Shown here: in pieces, positions 8,066 to 25,441 of the stretch | How the letters are laid out: every line of letters begins with the position of its first letter | Numbering within the stretch: position 1 is the stretch's first letter | Source of the DNA: an uncultured Candidatus Saccharibacteria bacterium | Lineage (GTDB): Bacteria > Patescibacteriota > Doudnabacteria > UBA920 | Length of the DNA stretch: 25,587 bases | Reading direction: 5' to 3' | Assembly: GCA_964407465.1 (NCBI GenBank) | Contig: CAYOVR010000002.1 | Location: 1-25,587, forward strand | Made by a program: the position numbers and the translations under genes | Notes under the pieces: model-generated | What the model was told of the DNA's origin: nothing | Databases searched by the model: none | The model's input: the letters and a program-made list of their open reading frames with translations, nothing else

Positions 8066-8589
8066 GATATACCTACTGGTGTAGAGTTAGGGTTGGTAAA
8101 GCTCCATGACAGAAATTTATGACAAACATCAATTTCACCAAGGTCTACATCATTATCGACCTTGTTCAGAAGCCACATTCTTACTCCTGGACATGCTGTT
8201 TGATATTGTTTAGCGCAATCACTACATTTATATCCATCACCAAACTCATTAGTATATTCTAATTCATTCCATAAGAGTCTGGTTGAATCAACAGTGATTG
8301 GACCTTCAGGACATGTGCAAGCCTTTTCATTGGCTTCACATCTAAAACAAATTGAATCCCAATAAGCATCCCAAATGGCATCAGGATCTTCTGTATTATA
8401 GGGAGTTATTTCCCCATAAGTATCTCCATAGGTCCATGTTTGTACATCAAAATGTTCATATACTTCGAAACACTCTTCACAATATGAATCTGTTCGAAAA
8501 ACTATATGAGAACAATTTTTATTGGGACAAGCAGCATACCAACGTTTACCTTGTGGACTATTTCTTGGATTCTGAAGAGACACCGCCAC
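8062..8589 (-). CDS. Cys-rich multi-zinc-finger protein (12 Cys)
   Basis: CPNKNC-x10-CEEC; CFRC-x6-CTC; CSDC-x7-C...CH. Coupled to E1 by an ATGA overlap. Confidence 0.7.
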   Translation of the reverse strand: MAVSLQNPRNSPQGKRWYAACPNKNCSHIVFRTDSYCEECFEVYEHFDVQTWTYGDTYGEITPYNTEDPDAIWDAYWDSICFRCEANEKACTCPEGPITVDSTRLLWNELEYTNEFGDGYKCSDCAKQYQTACPGVRMWLLNKVDNDVDLGEIDVCHKFLSWSFTNPNSTPVGIS

Positions 8590-9835
8590 GTGGAGACTCC
8601 TTTACGCCATCCCAGAAAATATGAAACTTTGAATCTGCAGATTTTGCTGAGGGATTATAGATAACAATCTTAGTACTATCTCTCTTAGCTGGATCTAGAT
8701 CAACAGTGTACTGACTAAGTGTTAGTCTAATCTTATGGATGTCTTCAATAGTTTCTCCTGGCATCAGTAAGAAGCTATTGCATCCAATGCATCTACGTCG
8801 AGTGATTTCCGTAGGCATCAAACTAGAGTGACAGCATGGGCACTTCTTAGGATTCTTCGTTAACTGAGTAACATAGATACATGCTCGGAAATCAGGAGCA
8901 CCTTCAGGAAGAACAACCTTAGGACGGGTAATAATGTTACGACCAGCAGGCAAACGAGAAACGTTGCTACCGTGTGTACCGGTGCCACCCTGTCCGTAGT
9001 GCTCCCAATGATTGTATTGTTTAGTATCTACTTCCTTAACTGAGACATTTTCAAGCCAGCCTTCAATCTCTGGCGTAAGTGCAGCAGCGGGCATAGCTTC
9101 GAATACATCAGTTGGGTTCAAGTAGAATGTTTGTCCCATAACTTGCAACTCAACATGATATTCAGTTGCATAGTTATTCTTTGCTTGCCAGCCATAAGTA
9201 ATATGCAAACCATCAAAGTCTGCCTGATCCTTATGATCAGTAGAAGAAGCAAAGGCACTCATCTTTGGATGAGAGTGTACAGAACCTACTACGTAAGCAC
9301 TCTTGGGTTTTTGTGCAACAATACTTTCAGGCTTATAATCGCAGTGTCCTGCTGTATTCTCCTGTTTTGGAGTAAGGATCCCCCAGCCTTCACTACCGCC
9401 AATCTTGGGATCCCAAGTCAGGATAATAATTGCTTCAGTACCGTGTCGATCTTCCGCAGCACGAAAAAAGGTATCAAGTTTAGCCACCATTTCCTGAGGA
9501 ATTTTTGGAAGGTTAAACTGAGCAGATACTTTAGTCTTATCCTTGCCTAAAACATCTGAAGGAGCAGGGACAAGAGCCCTACCCATGATGTCCTTACGGA
9601 ATCTAAAGATCTGAGGATGGATACGAGTCTTTGCTACATTATTATCTTTGAAATCAAATGTAGTTAGGCTAAGAACGAAACCCATGTCTACATCGTTCAG
9701 CTCGAGTTGATCCCAATCTGCATCAGATGTGACCACATAACATGGTTGCCCATTAGTAAGTTTAAATTGATTTAATTCCTCCAAAGGAATACGAACAACA
9801 GCTTCTTCTACGGGGACAGGGGTTGCCTCAGCCAC
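8558..9835 (-). CDS. JAB/MPN+ metallopeptidase (Prok-JAB, deubiquitinase-like) with C-terminal Zn ribbon
   Basis: Catalytic Glu in HGTEAIIIL, JAMM motif VGSVHSHPKMSAFASSTD (HxH-x7-S-x2-D), then FDGLHITYG; C-terminal CPCC-x13-CIGC. GTG start with AGAAAGGA upstream. Confidence 0.9.
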   Translation of the reverse strand: MAEATPVPVEEAVVRIPLEELNQFKLTNGQPCYVVTSDADWDQLELNDVDMGFVLSLTTFDFKDNNVAKTRIHPQIFRFRKDIMGRALVPAPSDVLGKDKTKVSAQFNLPKIPQEMVAKLDTFFRAAEDRHGTEAIIILTWDPKIGGSEGWGILTPKQENTAGHCDYKPESIVAQKPKSAYVVGSVHSHPKMSAFASSTDHKDQADFDGLHITYGWQAKNNYATEYHVELQVMGQTFYLNPTDVFEAMPAAALTPEIEGWLENVSVKEVDTKQYNHWEHYGQGGTGTHGSNVSRLPAGRNIITRPKVVLPEGAPDFRACIYVTQLTKNPKKCPCCHSSLMPTEITRRRCIGCNSFLLMPGETIEDIHKIRLTLSQYTVDLDPAKRDSTKIVIYNPSAKSADSKFHIFWDGVKESPRGGVSSESKK

Positions 9836-12329: not shown

Positions 12330-12771
12330 AGTTTTTATTAAGCTTTCTTATGGCAGAGCTATCAGATCCCCAAATCATATATCCAATTTCCGCACCAATT
12401 CTAGCTACAGCTAACGTAATTAAGACTGGATAATCTATTAAGAGAGAGAAAAGTATAATACAACCTGAAGTAACGAGACAACTAACTGATCCCCAAGAAT
12501 AAACTTCAATCAGATCAGCTATACGTGTCTCGTCTTTATATATTGGAGTTGCACCAATTTCTATTGGTAAGATAGGAATCTTAATAAAGATTGGTAGTCC
12601 AACATTAAGATCTTTTTCTTTTGCAGATATATAGTGTCCTAGTTCATGCGAAACTAGTGTGGTTATGGACACTATTGTTTTGACCGGATGTATCCACGGT
12701 CGATACAGAAGTATTGATCCTAACAGACTCAATGGAGTAAGAATCCGTAGGGGTTTCCATGTTTCTCTCAA
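12313..12771 (-). CDS. M50-family (site-2-protease-like) membrane zinc metallopeptidase
   Basis: Hydrophobic segment then SHELGHY (HExxH), LPIFIKIP..IGA, further transmembrane segments and a GSD motif. Start uncertain: TTG 12771 or TTG 12732. The track's ATG 13035 lies deep inside whiB. Confidence 0.6.
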   Translation of the reverse strand: MRETWKPLRILTPLSLLGSILLYRPWIHPVKTIVSITTLVSHELGHYISAKEKDLNVGLPIFIKIPILPIEIGATPIYKDETRIADLIEVYSWGSVSCLVTSGCIILFSLLIDYPVLITLAVARIGAEIGYMIWGSDSSAIRKLNKNYAYIN

Positions 12772-13156
12772 TGTAGTTATGGATATATTTTGAGAATCTT
12801 TTTTCCTCTTCTTTATTCCAATTCTCTTTTTTAAAGTGGGAATAGATAGAGAAGATAAGTCTTTTACGTGTGGCTTCAGATGTTCCTCCCCAGACTCCAT
12901 ACTCTTCCTTAAGTGCGACTGAAAAGGTAAGACATTGGAGTTTAACCGGGCAGTTGACACACACTCTGGCTGTTTGTTCCTGATCAACTGCGCGTACAGG
13001 AAACATGTCATATGATTCATCCTCACAGAGAGCATCTTTAGACCAGAATATTTTCTGATACATAAGATCTTCTATCCAAGTATGGAATAGCTCTTCTGGT
13101 GTAGGTTCTTGCTCTTCTTCAGAGACTAATAGGCTGTCCTGCAATTTCATTAACAT
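12644..13156 (-). CDS. whiB: WhiB-family Fe-S transcription factor
   Basis: Four Cys (ALC..VCVNCPVKLQC) plus EEYGVWGGTSEATRKRL. Confidence 0.9.
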   Translation of the reverse strand: MLMKLQDSLLVSEEEQEPTPEELFHTWIEDLMYQKIFWSKDALCEDESYDMFPVRAVDQEQTARVCVNCPVKLQCLTFSVALKEEYGVWGGTSEATRKRLIFSIYSHFKKENWNKEEEKRFSKYIHNYIERNMETPTDSYSIESVRINTSVSTVDTSGQNNSVHNHTSFA

Positions 13157-13893: not shown

Positions 13894-14328
13894 TTACCTA
13901 TGTTTAGTCGAACGAAAAGAAGTGAGAAGATCTAAATAATGCTTGGCTATTTCGTCAGCCATCCATACTGATCTACGAGGAACATGTTGTATTGTGAAAG
14001 GAAACTCTTCTTGAAGTAGTTTAACCGAATGATATAGAGGAATAAGAGATGGTGTTTTGCAAACACTTATATCATTGATATGGTTAACAACTAACATTGA
14101 ATCAGAATACACTATTGGATCAGGTAGGTCTGCCATAGCACACATAAGAACAGCACATAGTACTGCTTCATATTCTGCTTCGTTATTAGTTCGTCTCCCC
14201 AATCCTCTACCATATCTTAATACTTCTTTGTGGTTCTCAAATACAACCACCCCAAAAGATGCTTCGCCTAATTTATCTTCAGTTTGTCCATGACCTCTAC
14301 TTGCTCCGTCGCAGTATGCTTGAATCAA
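13894..14328 (-). CDS. rnhA: ribonuclease HI
   Basis: YCDGASRG, TNNEAEYEAV, YSDSMLVV, HVPR...ADEIA (D-E-D-D catalytic set); TTG start with GGAG 7 nt upstream. Confidence 0.9.
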   Translation of the reverse strand: MIQAYCDGASRGHGQTEDKLGEASFGVVVFENHKEVLRYGRGLGRRTNNEAEYEAVLCAVLMCAMADLPDPIVYSDSMLVVNHINDISVCKTPSLIPLYHSVKLLQEEFPFTIQHVPRRSVWMADEIAKHYLDLLTSFRSTKHR

Positions 14329-15190: not shown

Positions 15191-15470
15191 CTACCTTCTC
15201 CTCATCAAAAATTGATAATCCAACATCACCTAAATATTCTATTCTCTTCCAAAGTTCTCTCATTTCTTCAACTGTTTCTGTATCGAGAACTTCTTGATAC
15301 ATACTTTGTGATGCTGAATCTAAGATAGAATGCCATTGTCTATTAACACTATCAACAAGAAGAATCAACATCTTCCTAGATAGTTTAATATTACAATCTA
15401 ATTCAAGAGGGGTCGATGCCACGTACTTGAACCTTTTCTGAGGTTTCATAAGTTTTGGTAACAGCTTCAA
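15171..15470 (-). CDS. hypothetical protein
   Basis: 99 aa; start may be the second Met (MKPQ). Confidence 0.6.
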   Translation of the reverse strand: MKLLPKLMKPQKRFKYVASTPLELDCNIKLSRKMLILLVDSVNRQWHSILDSASQSMYQEVLDTETVEEMRELWKRIEYLGDVGLSIFDEEKVDVTNDN

Positions 15471-15909
15471 TTATCTTGCTGACATCTTTACCGTTGTTCT
15501 GGAAGTTGTCAGTAGAAGAAACAAGTTCTGTTTGCTTATTTTGCATTTCTTTAGCAATACGACGAAGCATACGTTCTTCTGTCTTCTTCTTCTGCCAAGC
15601 AATGCGACGCGTGCGAGCCTTAGCTGCATGCTCACGATTATGAATGTCGGAAGCAAGAGCCTTGTTAGCTTGGCGAATGAGTTTGTTGCCTAGACTAACT
15701 AATGCTCTACCAAGAGCAAGTTTCTGACCAACCTCAAGATTAAAATGATCATCATAATGAACCTTAGCTGATCCACTCATTGTCATTTTAAAATATGGTT
15801 CTAGATTCTTCTCATCCCATACACCAAGTTCGATGTTTGCAGTGGAGGCAGCACCGCTATGAAGAATCGTTCCGTTAATTCGGACATCATCTGAATTATG
15901 ATGAGACAT
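15403..15909 (-). CDS. hypothetical protein with basic coiled coil
   Basis: Likely start MSHHNSDD (ATG 15909) just after the TrmH stop, with AAGGA upstream. Confidence 0.7.
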   Translation of the reverse strand: MSHHNSDDVRINGTILHSGAASTANIELGVWDEKNLEPYFKMTMSGSAKVHYDDHFNLEVGQKLALGRALVSLGNKLIRQANKALASDIHNREHAAKARTRRIAWQKKKTEERMLRRIAKEMQNKQTELVSSTDNFQNNGKDVSKIIEAVTKTYETSEKVQVRGIDPS

Positions 15910-15913
15910 TATA

Positions 15914-16603
15914 TTATCCTTTTGTTGACATCTTCTGTCGATAGTCATACATAACAATAGATACAGCTGAAGCTGCATTTAAGGATCTTATTGATCCATA
16001 TTGTGGGATAGAAACCATATCATATGAATGGTTTAATAAATTAATATCTACCCCATCTGATTCTGATCCAAATACCAAAAGATATTTTAGCTTAGGATTC
16101 CAATTGTAATCGTATAGAGAAATTGGTTTTTTCTCACAAGAAGTATTGTTTTCTATACATATGATTTTAAGGTCATTTACTCTAGCGAATTTCATTAATT
16201 CAACAATGTTATCTGTATGATACACGCTAGTGTAATGGTGTGTCCCTACAGACCCCCTACGATCCCATCTCTTGGACTCTGAGACCTGAATAACACCAGC
16301 CATGCCAAAAGCATTTGCGGAGCGTACAGCGCCAGAGAAGTTGATATCATGAGACCAGTTACACATGGCTACCCAAACAGGCACTTGTTTGTGAGACATG
16401 GCAGAGATTATTTCTTCTCTTGACAAGCCTTTAAATTCGTCAATAACATTACGAGGATCGTAGATATTGCTGAATTCCCAATCAACTAGGTTGGTTGACT
16501 GGTGTAATAGATCGTACGTTATTGAACGGTCTATCGTAATTGGCTTTCTTGAGACGGGTTTGAAAATCCTCAGATAAGTTTTCAGCACCGTAGATATCCG
16601 CAA
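15914..16603 (-). CDS. SpoU/TrmH-family SPOUT RNA 2'-O-methyltransferase
   Basis: HDINFSGAVRSANAFG, ICIEN, LVFGSESDGV, VSIPQYGSIRSLNAASAVSIVMYDY. The RNVID..WDRRG segments resemble, from memory, the actinobacterial Rv0380c-type subfamily. Confidence 0.9.
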   Translation of the reverse strand: MRISTVLKTYLRIFKPVSRKPITIDRSITYDLLHQSTNLVDWEFSNIYDPRNVIDEFKGLSREEIISAMSHKQVPVWVAMCNWSHDINFSGAVRSANAFGMAGVIQVSESKRWDRRGSVGTHHYTSVYHTDNIVELMKFARVNDLKIICIENNTSCEKKPISLYDYNWNPKLKYLLVFGSESDGVDINLLNHSYDMVSIPQYGSIRSLNAASAVSIVMYDYRQKMSTKG

Positions 16604-17128: not shown

Positions 17129-17875
17129 TTAATGTGAAAGGACTTTTAGTTCTGCTTCAAGAGTAACAAGTTTTTTGTCTGTTGATTCCATTAGGTTCAG
17201 TAATACTGCTTTAGCAACTTTTTCTTTAGCTTTAATCATTGCTGGAGTAAAGAAGATACCACGTTCAAAAAGGTCATTATATTCACCAAGAATATAGTTA
17301 TACCATTTGATATCAGGTACCCCGTGATATTCTCTGCGATAACAAAGTTCAGTTGCTTGTGCGTTCATTCTAGAATATCTAAAACGAATCATATCTCCGT
17401 AGATTGCCGAAGTTGTATCCCAAGCAGGATTTTTAAGGTCCCACTTAATAAGTTTAGCGACATCTTCGACAGCATCTTTGCCCATTTTGGTTTTAGATAA
17501 AACAGAACGAGTTATATCAGAAGCTTTCTTTAAAGAATCTTCTGGTAAAAGATCTGGATTGATATAACATAGTCGAGAAACATAAGCAATTACTGCAATA
17601 GATGCTTCTGCGTTTGTTAGACCAGACTTTCTATTCTCATCAATAACTCCACGGATCGTGGTAGCAACAGGTCCATTGATGAAATAGTTATTTTCCCTGA
17701 ACATGATACCAAGCTTCCAGAGAAATGCTTCAACTTCAGCTGGAACTTCAGTGCCTTCTGTCAGCCCTAAGAATGCTGAACGATAAATTTCAGCCCAAGG
17801 TGCAATAGCAGATTGGAGAATATTAATATGAATAGTATACTTGTCAGGATTTAGTGGGTCATACTGCGGCATCAA
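17129..17875 (-). CDS. hypothetical protein
   Basis: 248 aa; ATGA overlap with the PNK stop. Confidence 0.8.
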   Translation of the reverse strand: MMPQYDPLNPDKYTIHINILQSAIAPWAEIYRSAFLGLTEGTEVPAEVEAFLWKLGIMFRENNYFINGPVATTIRGVIDENRKSGLTNAEASIAVIAYVSRLCYINPDLLPEDSLKKASDITRSVLSKTKMGKDAVEDVAKLIKWDLKNPAWDTTSAIYGDMIRFRYSRMNAQATELCYRREYHGVPDIKWYNYILGEYNDLFERGIFFTPAMIKAKEKVAKAVLLNLMESTDKKLVTLEAELKVLSH

Positions 17876-18828
17876 AAATCACCATCATTAACTTGCCAGG
17901 TGGGTAGTCCTAAGGATCTCCACATACGAACTACTTGATCTCGATCATCTAATACTAAAGTAGGATAGTATTTAGGAAGTACATTCTCAACAAGCAATTC
18001 GTATTTTACCACCGAATCCTTTCGTTGATCTTTTTCAGGTCGCATAAAGAGGTGATCATATGCCACCTCATACTTCTTTAACCATTCCTCAGTTTCTGGT
18101 CTACATACACCATCTCTACCAGAAAGAAGAATTACGGCACTATTAAGATATGCCCAGTCGAGATAGTCTCGAACCTTATAGTCGATACTATCGACACCTA
18201 CACGTTTCCAATCGAATGGGCTACGATCGCCCATGATTGCTAATGTTCCATCAATATCACAGATGGTACATGGTGGAAGGTCGGGATTTAGAATAAACTT
18301 GGATCTATCCATAACCATTTCTGGTATGGCTTTTTTACTCCATCGTTTATTCCAATCACCAAACATTCCTTTGATTGCTTGAGTTGGAACCTTATGTGGA
18401 TCACCAGTAGCTAAAAGATCTGTACGATTAGCATTGTTTTCTAGCGCTACCTCTAGTGGCACATCTAGCATGATTACAGCTACTTTAGCCATGCCAAATA
18501 CTAAGCCTTTAATCTGTCGTTCATGTATAGGATTAAGGTTAGTATCATCTACAATGACATGGCGACCAGCTTTAATAGCATTTAAGATGATTGAATCTCT
18601 TACTTTAAGAACAACAGATTCATTAGGTTTAGAAAATTTAGAGTCAAACATCATGGCTCGTAAATCATCTTTGTTCACACGTACATATTTATTAGGATTC
18701 TTATTAAGAATTTCTTTAGCGTGTGTAGTTTTACCTGAAGCAGGTAAGCCCTTAAGAATATAAACAGTTGGAAGTTTTTCTTCTACTGTAGCCAAGTTGC
18801 TGTTGATTGTGGTTTCACTAGTCGCCAT
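17872..18828 (-). CDS. pseT: bifunctional polynucleotide 5'-kinase/3'-phosphatase (T4 PseT-like)
   Basis: P-loop LKGLPASGKTT, RVNKDDLR, VIVDDTNL; HAD domain CDIDGTLA, LSGR, LFMRP..RKDSVVK, LDDRDQVVRMWR. Confidence 0.9.
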   Translation of the reverse strand: MATSETTINSNLATVEEKLPTVYILKGLPASGKTTHAKEILNKNPNKYVRVNKDDLRAMMFDSKFSKPNESVVLKVRDSIILNAIKAGRHVIVDDTNLNPIHERQIKGLVFGMAKVAVIMLDVPLEVALENNANRTDLLATGDPHKVPTQAIKGMFGDWNKRWSKKAIPEMVMDRSKFILNPDLPPCTICDIDGTLAIMGDRSPFDWKRVGVDSIDYKVRDYLDWAYLNSAVILLSGRDGVCRPETEEWLKKYEVAYDHLFMRPEKDQRKDSVVKYELLVENVLPKYYPTLVLDDRDQVVRMWRSLGLPTWQVNDGDF

Positions 18829-19742
18829 ATATAAGAGCTACCTTTAATAATCGCTGACTTAGCAAAAGGTGTTAAGCCAAAATCTTTATCAGGGATACTT
18901 GCTATAATTTCAGAAAGAGTTAAATCAGGATTATTATCGTCTGCAGTTTGTAATTCTTCCATGACTTTCTCTGATAAAAAGTCATAACTATCTTTAATAT
19001 TTACCATTCGAGATTCAACCCAATCAATAAATTCTTGGGGTGACCCTCTTGGAATCAAAGCAATTGGATCTTGATAAGCAGAAACTAATTCCCATATACG
19101 CAGAGTATTTAATTCTTTTATAGCATCTTTGATTGCCATAAAAGCATAGGTGGGATAGTAGGTGCGCTCAACACCAGTGTCAGAAACCCAACAATATACA
19201 GCTCGATAAGAAATAGGATGTGGATCTAAAAGCAGGTCTTTCATGGTAGTTGCATTTTTTAATACCATGTATGGATTTTCAAGACCTTCAGATGTTATGT
19301 CTTCGGTATCCCAATCATATCTGCCAATGACATCTTGTAGAGTTTCTTGAATGTGGAATTCACCGTCTTCATCTTCGTGTCCAGCATCTATATATTCAAA
19401 CCTAAGAATAATAGGTGCATTTTTGCTAATGATTGGACAGATAATTCCTTCAACATATGTATTGATTTTATGTAGATCAGTTCTACATTTTAGATCAACT
19501 ATACTTTCAAGAAGTTTTTCTAATCGCACTTTAATAAATGCAATAAGTTCTTTTTCCATTACCTTAGAACTATCACCACGATGACGTGGAGTATTAATTG
19601 TCTCTAAATTAACTGTTGATTTATTGTAAGTGAAGAAAAATTGCCAGTTATTCTCTACAATTGTAGAAAGAGGTTTTGTGACTGGTGGAATCTTTGCTTC
19701 ATAATCAAATACTACGTGATCAAATAAATCATACAGTTCCAT
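18783..19742 (-). CDS. RNA-ligase-like protein (Rnl1-type C-terminal fold), catalytic motifs apparently degenerate
   Basis: LRFEYI resembles ligase motif III. The C-terminus LNTLRIWELV..LIPRGSPQEFIDWV..YIWRLVKP resembles phage RNA ligase tails. No KxDG or KxK motif is visible. Located directly upstream of PNK. Confidence 0.45.
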   Translation of the reverse strand: MELYDLFDHVVFDYEAKIPPVTKPLSTIVENNWQFFFTYNKSTVNLETINTPRHRGDSSKVMEKELIAFIKVRLEKLLESIVDLKCRTDLHKINTYVEGIICPIISKNAPIILRFEYIDAGHEDEDGEFHIQETLQDVIGRYDWDTEDITSEGLENPYMVLKNATTMKDLLLDPHPISYRAVYCWVSDTGVERTYYPTYAFMAIKDAIKELNTLRIWELVSAYQDPIALIPRGSPQEFIDWVESRMVNIKDSYDFLSEKVMEELQTADDNNPDLTLSEIIASIPDKDFGLTPFAKSAIIKGSSYIWRLVKPQSTATWLQ

Positions 19743-23924: not shown

Positions 23925-23956
23925 TTTATATTCCTTTTTAGCATAAATTGAAGTAG

Positions 23957-24030
23957 TAGGGGTGATGGGAATTGAACCCACTATCTTTGGTATATAAGAC
24001 CAAGGCATTTACCGTTTATGCTACACCCCA
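23957..24030 (-). tRNA. tRNA-Ile, anticodon TAT (UAU)
   Basis: Cloverleaf: TGGGGTG-TA-GCAT AAACGGTAA ATGC-C-TTGGT CTTATAT ACCAA-AGATA-GTGGG TTCAATT CCCAT-CACCCCT-A; U1:U72 mismatch; no encoded CCA. Confidence 0.85.
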
Positions 24031-24113: not shown

Positions 24114-24338
24114 TTATTCACCATAATTAGTACTCATATAATTTTTTACGGTAATAACGAGTTCTTTGATTTCTACAGCTGTAAAAGTCTTATCTTCATA
24201 AGGAGCTACTAGACTATTGACGGCTAATTCCATAGAATCTATACAGTCGTTAATAACTTCCCACATTAAATCAAATACAATGTCATTATCTATCAAATAG
24301 TTAATATCATCTAATATTTGATCTGGCGTTCTTTTCAT
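24114..24338 (-). CDS. hypothetical protein
   Basis: 74 aa, acidic. Confidence 0.65.
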   Translation of the reverse strand: MKRTPDQILDDINYLIDNDIVFDLMWEVINDCIDSMELAVNSLVAPYEDKTFTAVEIKELVITVKNYMSTNYGE

Positions 24339-24871
24339 ATAACATCTCGAGAATCTGCTAATACGATCTTATGGCGCCATTCATTATCGATTGGCCAAAT
24401 GAGATATTTACCAAGATTATGACCTTCAATAGGCGTAAATTTATTATCTAAACGATGATAAACACCATCTAGAACACTAATTAATCCCAAATAAATTCCT
24501 TGTATATTAACAGGAACTCGAAACCAAACGGCTAATCTTTTATCATCTTGCGGGTCATATTCAGTATAAGTAGATCCACAGGCAGGTCCTGGCTTGTGGA
24601 AATAACCTAATATATGAGTTTTGATATAACTTTTTGTAACTCCTTCTGAAGGAGTACTCATATATGGTTGAAGAGTTAGAGGTGCAGAAAGTATATCATA
24701 ATCATCTCTGATAGCTTTAGGCATTGTGCGTTGTGCATCACGTGCGCCTAAAGAATATCTTACTGCAATTCTAGAAATGTCAAAAAGTCGAATATTAGTA
24801 GTCGGATAAATTTCCGGCAATCTCATATTTGAGACATTGCTACCAAGATCAAGTTTTCTGCGTTTTGTCAT
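24335..24871 (-). CDS. hypothetical protein
   Basis: 178 aa; ATGA overlap. Confidence 0.7.
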   Translation of the reverse strand: MTKRRKLDLGSNVSNMRLPEIYPTTNIRLFDISRIAVRYSLGARDAQRTMPKAIRDDYDILSAPLTLQPYMSTPSEGVTKSYIKTHILGYFHKPGPACGSTYTEYDPQDDKRLAVWFRVPVNIQGIYLGLISVLDGVYHRLDNKFTPIEGHNLGKYLIWPIDNEWRHKIVLADSRDVI

Positions 24872-25178
24872 CTTTGCGTCCTAATATTTCCTGGATAATT
24901 TTAGGGCTAAGATCTTTTTCTACTGCTAATCCGTATTCGAGTATTTCTTCTTTGGTTTTGACTTCTCTAAGAAGAAGACCAAGAGGAGTTGTTCTCATCC
25001 CCATACGTTCTATGCCTGTAACTGTAACCGTTTTATTTGGAGTACATCCTGGGCCTCTTAAAGTAATTTCGTCAAGAAGTTCTACAACACCAGATATAAC
25101 ATCTCCCGTTATTACTACTCCGCGATCTTTGATATCAAATGCTTGATCGATGCTAAATACAAATGGAGATTCAGACAC
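24849..25178 (-). CDS. stand-alone EF-Tu domain II-like beta-barrel protein
   Basis: PFVFSIDQAFDIKDRGVVITGDVISGVV..DEITLRG..TVTGIE..LGLLLRE aligns by eye with EF-Tu [48 protein letters not shown]. There is no G domain or domain III. Confidence 0.75.
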   Translation of the reverse strand: MSESPFVFSIDQAFDIKDRGVVITGDVISGVVELLDEITLRGPGCTPNKTVTVTGIERMGMRTTPLGLLLREVKTKEEILEYGLAVEKDLSPKIIQEILGRKDDKTQKT

Positions 25179-25365
25179 TTCTTAACCATTCCATATAAGA
25201 AGCATTAGCTTCAATTTGGCTATAGAATTTAAATATAGTTGTTTTAGGTATTACGCGAAATAGGGCGCTAAAACAATATGGTTCAAAGTCGGTGATTGCT
25301 GGTGTTGTGTCAAAATCATCTGTTGAATAATAGAACCCATGATTAGGGTCATAAGTATAATCCAT
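25171..25365 (-). CDS. hypothetical protein
   Basis: 64 aa; ATG lies 2 nt after the tRNA-Asn discriminator base. Confidence 0.55.
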   Translation of the reverse strand: MDYTYDPNHGFYYSTDDFDTTPAITDFEPYCFSALFRVIPKTTIFKFYSQIEANASYMEWLRSV

Positions 25366-25367
25366 AG

Positions 25368-25441
25368 CTCCCAGGGTTGGACTCGAACCAACGACCGGCG
25401 AGTTAACAGCTCGCAGCTCTTGCCGACTGAGCTACCTGGGA
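25368..25441 (-). tRNA. tRNA-Asn, anticodon GTT
   Basis: TCCCAGG-TA-GCTC AGTCGGCAA GAGC-T-GCGAG CTGTTAA CTCGC-CGGTC-GTTGG TTCGAGT CCAAC-CCTGGGA-G; discriminator G73; no encoded CCA. Confidence 0.93.

Follow-up and report, generated by a model that had tools for sequence, protein, structure and literature searches.

A free-standing, remodelled EF-Tu domain II homologue encoded by a phage-like contig from wastewater

The window, i.e. the whole 25,587-nucleotide stretch of DNA that was analysed, carries a gene for a 109-aa protein which we regard, with high confidence, as a functional accessory gene of an uncultured wastewater phage, encoding a free-standing, anciently diverged derivative of the EF-Tu domain II barrel. 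The domain itself is already known; its solo, remodelled, phage-borne and population-polymorphic form is new. No description of a phage-encoded EF-Tu fragment was found in the literature, and no free-standing match in PHROGs, INPHARED, IMG/VR or BFVD. As to function, the reading we place first, at a probability of about one in three, is that the solo barrel competes with or blocks a host protein whose docking site is EF-Tu domain II or the acceptor end of tRNA. The gene and its two distinctive segments are the following:

24849..25178, minus strand: solo EF-Tu domain II homologue gene, 109 aa (ORF list, EF-Tu similarity, intact homologues)
24984..25004, minus strand: codons 59-65, MGMRTTP, shortened loop L4, the d2-e2 hairpin of EF-Tu (alignments)
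24864..24905, minus strand: codons 92-105, predicted C-terminal helix without EF-Tu counterpart, at the place of the domain III linker (AF2)

The gene begins with a GTG start at 25178 and ends with the stop codon at 24849-24851; a promoter and terminator scan gave nothing over shuffled expectation. An earlier note on this DNA had aligned the protein with EF-Tu domain II, and this similarity was borne out, the best matches being EF-Tu and not other barrels. In a phmmer comparison with all PDB chains, the best 60 of 65 matches were translational GTPases, nearly all EF-Tu. The top match, 7vmx_B (E 1.9e-6), placed query residues 3-88 on residues 209-297; likewise, residues 207-290 of E. coli EF-Tu (1efc_A) aligned to query 3-84 and residues 218-301 of Thermus EF-Tu to query 3-83. 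NCBIfam EF-Tu models matched with E 2.6e-8 to 1.8e-7 and SelB more weakly (E 3.6e-6), and an exhaustive protein search with the 109-aa sequence returned EF-Tu-type domain II sequences only. The Pfam search was less clear-cut: a match to PF03144 (GTP_EFTU_D2) is present (18.5 bits, E 0.0027), but it covers only profile positions 1-44 of 73 and lies below the gathering cut-off of 30.3 bits.

The N-terminus of the protein falls exactly at the EF-Tu domain I/II boundary. With neither a G domain nor domain III, it scored 31 bits against a cut-off of 522 for the full EF-Tu model TIGR00485, and neither the ORF list nor Pfam gave any trace of G-domain or domain III coding sequence beside the gene. Sequence comparison thus identifies it, with high confidence, as an EF-Tu domain II homologue and not as a member of the EF-Tu family proper. 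It shares with EF-Tu domain II (PF03144; about residues 205-296 of E. coli TufA) the motifs PF..I..F.I..RG.V.TG...G, TG.E and G.LLR; the six-stranded barrel predicted for it comes from a model that leans on EF-Tu sequences. It differs in being free-standing and phage-encoded, in a loop L4 shorter by 6 residues, in an added C-terminal helix and in the replacement of several universal residues.

One of these changes concerns the hairpin FRKLLDEGRAGEN of EF-Tu, reduced to 7 residues in the 109-aa protein. This shortening to MGMRTTP, already noticed in the first reading of the sequence, was seen in the alignments to EF-Tu: the 13-residue segment F-R-K-L-L-D-E-G-R-A-G-E-N is replaced by 7 residues, a 6-residue deletion. 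In E. coli numbering, F261-D266 are deleted and N273 becomes Pro. The loop length and the pattern E-R-x-G-[MIL]-[RK]-T-[TS]-P are kept in all family members, including the homologue at 64% identity, and the loop sequence differs between alleles.

To map residues, we combined the phmmer coordinate anchors with a column consensus derived from 78 cellular EF-Tu domain II sequences of many phyla. Kept positions (E. coli numbering) are P209, F210, F218, I220, R223, G224, V226, T228, G229, G234, G246, T256, G257, E259, G275, L277, L278 and R279. Six positions conserved at 95-100% in EF-Tu are replaced (D216 by Q, G222 by D, T225 by V, R230 by D, N273 by P and G280 by E). The aminoacyl pocket within domain II is formed, in Thermus numbering, by Glu226, Asp227, Phe229, Thr239 and Asn285 (PMC4329189), i.e. 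E215, D216, F218, T228 and N273 of E. coli. Their equivalents in the 109-aa protein are Asp11, Gln12, Phe14, Thr24 and Pro65: two are kept, one is changed conservatively and two are lost, and beside the two lost residues the invariant EF-Tu F261-R262-K263 is deleted.

Over the domain, the protein is 30-38% identical (median 34%) to each of the 78 cellular sequences, which are 56-100% identical to one another (median 72%). Its closest cellular matches are spread over Bacteroidota, Actinomycetota, Proteobacteria, Patescibacteria and others, so that no donor lineage can be named; mycobacterial EF-Tu stands slightly ahead in the PDB list, a lead that is not meaningful. Recent capture from a host tuf gene is ruled out by this low identity together with the absence of phylum preference among the best matches. 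Judged from these alignments, the solo protein is an old, strongly remodelled derivative and not a copy of a host surface; at 30-38% identity to any EF-Tu domain II, faithful display of the host surface is impossible.

An AF2 model built with EF-Tu domain II fragments in the alignment predicted a beta-barrel followed by a C-terminal helix (pLDDT 87.8). With this EF-Tu-informed model, the top 50 Foldseek matches in the PDB consisted entirely of EF-Tu domain II structures, with E values from 2e-6 and an rmsd of 2.2-3.1 A across some 92 columns. A structural comparison had been proposed beforehand, and the predicted barrel does match EF-Tu domain II, but the model depends on the EF-Tu sequences: a control with the four family members alone reached a pLDDT of 36. 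The assignment is therefore carried by the sequence similarity, from which the structural result cannot be separated. The helix spans residues 92-105 in the model and 92-103 in the low-confidence control, and the alignment to EF-Tu ends at about residue 88. In BFVD, the only matches were giant-virus GTPases with E values above 1e-3, and no viral protein of the free-standing kind was found.

Five intact copies, 64-91% identical to the 109-aa protein and lying in three different gene neighbourhoods, were found in metagenomes. An index of 5.8 billion proteins gave two close relatives, P0001 (88%) and P0002 (85%), an exhaustive search of 1.84 billion representatives added P0003 (64%, 116 aa), and a JGI scan the copy on contig L009 (91%). 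Pairwise dN/dS among the four copies tested (the window protein, P0001, P0002 and P0003) was 0.15-0.56, including pairs with dS of about 2. Hence the earlier view that the gene is not the remnant of a tuf locus was upheld by the intact copies, their purifying selection, the three neighbourhoods and adjoining ORFs unrelated to EF-Tu. Pseudogene-like decay, looked for among the homologues, was not seen in any of them.

The contig that carries the gene is densely packed, with every gene on one strand, and Pfam and PHROGs recognized on it a helicase, an AAA ATPase, ThiF- and JAB-type proteins, an RNase H, a SpoU methylase, a polynucleotide kinase-phosphatase (PNKP) and a WhiB protein. Those referred to below are:

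3325-4941: AAA ATPase (Pfam/PHROGs)
7295-9835: adjoining ThiF (E1-like) and JAB-domain genes (Pfam/PHROGs)
12644-13156: WhiB-family protein, E 3.6e-16 (Pfam)
17872-19742: polynucleotide kinase-phosphatase, HAD_PNKP, E 1e-46 (Pfam)

The helicase has its nearest counterparts, 28-36% identical, in phages of Tunturiibacter, Gordonia, Mycobacterium and Tsukamurella. Searches of IMG/VR and INPHARED gave no close viral contigs for the domain II gene or the helicase, only distant homologues of the latter. The contig is phage-like and its host probably actinobacterial, as the WhiB and helicase matches suggest; WhiB is the best clue to the host, although the GC content of the contig is low, at 36%. The MAG is a chimeric bin, with contig GC from 0.235 to 0.676 (0.36 for the window contig) and no EF-Tu gene; it therefore tells nothing about the host, and the window contig is probably mis-binned in it. 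For the same reason, comparison with the EF-Tu of a host in the same MAG was ruled out. Metagenomes of wastewater, sludge and rivers from numerous studies contain the contig sequence again. The distribution among phages had been proposed as a check: the 109-aa protein had no match in INPHARED, IMG/VR or PHROGs, nor in PADLOC, which also gave none for the neighbouring genes. On the same contig, ThiF, JAB and AAA ATPase genes make up a ubiquitin-like conjugation set, and a 319-aa ORF upstream of PNKP matched no RNA ligase or other family in Pfam, PDB, NCBIfam or PADLOC.

We then compared the window with related contigs. The alignment with Logan contig L002 is ungapped over 10,490 bp and shows 53 mismatches, 41 of which fall at 24848-25131, inside the domain II gene (binomial P about 1e-53):

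24848..25131, no strand assigned: polymorphic tract (L002 alignment and contigs of wastewater runs)

These 41 mismatches change 16 residues of the domain II protein. Of the proteins encoded around it, those of 64 and 74 aa are identical in the two contigs and that of 178 aa differs at 2 residues (98.9% identity). Between the window allele and the alternative one, dS is 0.28 and dN/dS 0.34; on these sequence values the tract looks like a diverged allele swapped in through recombination, and not like demonstrated positive selection. Substitutions affect all four bases with no adenine bias, and no reverse-transcriptase family was found among the Pfam-scanned ORFs, which rules out DGR-type hypermutation; the RVT_3 match at 13894-14328 belongs to an ORF of 144 aa for which the RNase H family is a match as well.

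The alternative allele was present in public wastewater run contigs of three studies. In two independent ones it stood beside the window allele with identical flanks, at depth 17 against 9 (run X1) and 3.6 against 9 (run X3); in the third (X5), only the alternative allele covered the gene. Some of the changes (D18N in L1, M59Q, M61I and R62K in L4, L80C in the L5 helix) lie in loops of the CCA interface, although they are too few for statistics; in this barrel fold, the interface that binds CCA is made up of loops L1, L4 and L5 and of strands 1, 2 and 5 (PMC4236685). The converse was seen in L003 and L009, in which the domain II gene is 88-91% identical and the downstream 178-aa homologue just 43-45%. 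Mismatches confined to the gene, coexisting alleles and changing neighbours thus mark the domain II gene as an accessory cassette that is both mobile and mosaic. It offers a clean natural case of accessory-gene exchange among near-identical phages. A second cluster of differences from L002 lies at 15702-15763 (8 mismatches in 62 bp, all synonymous), inside an Rv2632c-like ORF at 15403-15978, and looks like another short recombination tract.

The immediate surroundings of the gene are as follows:

25367..25441, minus strand: tRNA-Asn(GTT), upstream of the domain II gene (tRNA scan)
25171..25365, minus strand: 64-aa ORFan between tRNA-Asn and the domain II gene, overlapping the start of the latter by 8 nt (ORF list)
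24335..24871, minus strand: 178-aa ORFan, its first 23 nt shared with the 3′ end of the domain II gene (ORF list)
24114-24338: 74-aa ORF (ORF list)
23956..24030, minus strand: tRNA-Ile(TAT), downstream of the gene cluster (tRNA scan)

The earlier description of the gene as lying between two tRNA genes holds for the brackets, tRNA-Ile and tRNA-Asn, but three further small ORFs share the interval. As had been stated, these flanking ORFs (64, 178 and 74 aa) show no similarity to EF-Tu in Pfam, PHROGs, PADLOC or NCBIfam; in the same four collections they and the 319-aa ORF gave no match of any kind. Neither the 178- nor the 319-aa ORF had a PDB match, and the 178-aa ORF had none in the ESM Atlas or the homologue search either.

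This arrangement varies. A homologue of the 178-aa protein (43-45% identity) also lies downstream of the domain II gene in L003 and L009, where the upstream neighbours are an HNH endonuclease gene and a different tRNA-Asn. In L009 this tRNA-Asn is directly 5′ of the domain II homologue, and an HNH endonuclease-like ORF (132-581) is directly 5′ of the two. The 64-aa ORF is missing in the L009-type arrangement and in one X1 variant (joint 25167 to 25427). In L004, which carries the 64% homologue, both neighbours differ and an unrelated ferredoxin-like ORF follows the domain II gene. HNH genes beside the L009 copy and beside P0018, an unrelated solo domain II protein encoded on L005, make homing a possible driver: it could promote the exchange of domain II alleles, and with the HNH gene next to the L009 copy, the allele polymorphism could be a by-product of homing-endonuclease activity. 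Two smaller observations concern the same region. An X1 contig skips 221 bases at 24115-24337, which would remove the 74-aa ORF and constitutes another presence/absence polymorphism. In addition, an ORF start ATGGAT lies one base past the tRNA-Asn 3′ end both in the window (25363-25367, 64-aa ORF) and in L009 (617-621, domain II gene); an indel with this start as its anchor may be what separates the two forms, and tRNA processing might release a leaderless mRNA.

Several published systems define the EF-Tu surface that could be imitated, being EF-Tu binders in conflicts and not relatives of the 109-aa protein. Domain II is the sole domain bound by the tRNase toxin CdiA-CT NC101, whose contacts include the d2-d2x hairpin and Asp267 (PMC5737660). 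The T4 Gol peptide binds domains II and III and licenses the Lit protease (PMC3014915), and the STAND sensor Avs7 uses EF-Tu as a scaffold through domains II and III, with domain III contacts weighing more (PMC12803255). Type IV Thoeris is reported to cleave EF-Tu, in work cited in PMC12803255. The hairpin gripped by CdiA-CT NC101 is largely missing in the 109-aa protein, and domain III, which Gol and Avs7 also need, is absent from it; moreover, CdiA-CT NC101, Gol/Lit and Avs7 are Gram-negative systems, whereas the host here is probably actinobacterial. EF-Tu appears from such cases as an emerging hub of bacterial conflict, cleaved by Lit and type IV Thoeris, serving Avs7 as a scaffold and hijacked by CdiA and other RNase toxins.

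Three constraints, namely the CCA-holding barrel as the only recognizable ancestry, its rebuilt but conserved face and the conflict-gene behaviour of the locus, determine together with the published docking cases our ranking of explanations. Competition with a host protein comes first, followed in turn by binding of tRNA ends, an adaptor role, modulation of translation and a decaying remnant. According to the first explanation, the solo barrel would be a small binding module using the EF-Tu face that holds the aminoacyl-CCA end, the putative binding face comprising strands 1, 2 and 5 and loops L1, L4 and L5. Since the face is rebuilt yet conserved within the family, it probably keeps a ligand site, with new specificity. 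A defence sensor, a protease or a tRNA-directed toxin are candidate host proteins to be blocked, and translation would be protected during infection. Differences in the loops between coexisting alleles would be expected if host partners vary. The domain II gene behaves like a conflict gene, being mosaic and allele-swapping, with ORFan neighbours and in a region of tRNA and tRNA-repair genes; by analogy with the published proteins docking on EF-Tu domain II, the polymorphism confined to the gene fits a conflict role.

The earlier note had proposed a host-protein mimic acting as a decoy or inhibitor of an EF-Tu-dependent defence. The conflict part of this proposal agrees with the allele polymorphism and docking precedents, but "mimic" is too strong a word for a protein 30-38% identical to EF-Tu in which the CdiA-gripped hairpin is shortened. 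Indeed, the median identity of 34%, the loss of this hairpin and the fact that Avs7 and Gol depend on domain III all count against competition or a decoy role. In a bolder and more doubtful version, the protein would be the first known case of a phage turning a piece of EF-Tu into an anti-defence protein, which would plug a host toxin or immune protein with a docking site on EF-Tu or the tRNA end (for example an Avs7-like sensor, an EF-Tu protease of the Lit or Thoeris IV type, or a toxin modifying the CCA end), with alleles tracking variation of the host partner. If the barrel does block a defence or protect tRNA ends, counter-defence would gain a new class, and the barrel could serve as a compact probe to find proteins recognizing the domain II face.

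A possible but less probable explanation is that the solo barrel by itself binds the (aminoacyl-)CCA end of tRNAs, an ancestral activity that would have been kept; the earlier note had raised this idea too, as a tRNA-end shield. It may shield phage or host tRNAs from 3′-end nucleases or modifying toxins, or handle a charged tRNA such as tRNA-Asn. A precedent exists in IF2 C2, a barrel of this fold that even in isolation possesses every determinant needed to bind the fMet-tRNA acceptor end and does so as strongly as the whole factor (PMC4611024; PMC4236685). Like IF2 C2 and eIF5B domain IV, the 109-aa protein is, by prediction, a barrel of about 100 residues with, by analogy, the potential in principle to be an autonomous acceptor-end module (PMC4611024, PMC4236685). 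It is unlike IF2 C2 in that the latter is part of a large factor, and no specific sequence relationship between them is detectable, the 109-aa protein being closest to EF-Tu. Within the pocket, the equivalents of E. coli F218, T228 and E259 persist and Asp stands, as a conservative change, in the place of E215, but D216 is changed to Gln, N273 to Pro, and F261-R262-K263 are deleted; the contributions of domains I and III are likewise absent. New basic residues conserved in the family, R58 and R/K62 in the loop and K74 near the L5 helix, would suit an RNA ligand, but the barrel is acidic (net charge -1 to -4, pI 4.7-5.8). The gene follows a tRNA-Asn in two different neighbourhoods, on a contig with tRNA, PNKP and SpoU genes, but tRNA genes are common insertion points for accessory genes anyway. 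Finally, the tRNA pool is abundant and shielding it would need very high expression.

Rather unlikely is a barrel devoid of EF-Tu-related functions, serving as a partner-specific adaptor, i.e. the subunit or chaperone of a phage protein, most simply of the coupled 178-aa ORFan. The 23-nt overlap with that downstream gene, the presence of its 43-45% homologue after the domain II gene in L003 and L009 and the extreme divergence from EF-Tu would all suit such a role. But the 64% homologue in L004 is followed by the ferredoxin-like ORF and not by a 178-aa homologue, and domain II alleles are exchanged next to a 178-aa protein that remains 98.9% identical, the reverse also being seen. This independent change of the two genes argues against tight co-evolution.

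Modulation of translation is improbable. The barrel would bind the ribosome, EF-Tu or its partners and tune or inhibit host translation; EF-Tu domain II contacts the small ribosomal subunit during decoding and phages often reprogramme translation, but nothing specific in the data points this way and many EF-Tu-universal residues are changed. That the ORF arose by chance or is left over from a captured tuf gene in decay, as a score under the Pfam gathering threshold and a very small family might suggest, is the least credible reading by far, and a pseudogene is ruled out, given five intact copies of conserved length under purifying selection (dN/dS below 1 even at dS about 2), precise domain boundaries and no adjoining coding sequence for the G domain or domain III.

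Domain-II-only architecture is not restricted to this family. The exhaustive search also returned other solo or tandem domain II proteins with a full-length hairpin, P0018, P0007, P0027, P0017 and P0006, and several clusters of about 100-aa proteins with similar features were found in the ESM Atlas; a profile-search census of solo domain II proteins gave returns dominated by partial EF-Tu gene fragments. The five share the architecture with the 109-aa protein, but at about 30-35% identity, with the full hairpin, with Pfam scores that pass the threshold and with other partners. P0018 (L005) adjoins an HNH gene. P0007 (L006), P0027 (L010) and P0017 (L011) consist only of two tandem EF-Tu domain II barrels and are encoded on short metagenome contigs. 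P0006 (L012, 8001-9239), of 412 aa, contains three EF-Tu domain II repeats and belongs to a bacterial locus, where its neighbours are Ser/Thr kinase, PP2C phosphatase, VWA, transglutaminase and FtsK/SpoIIIE genes and a 2023-aa ORFan.
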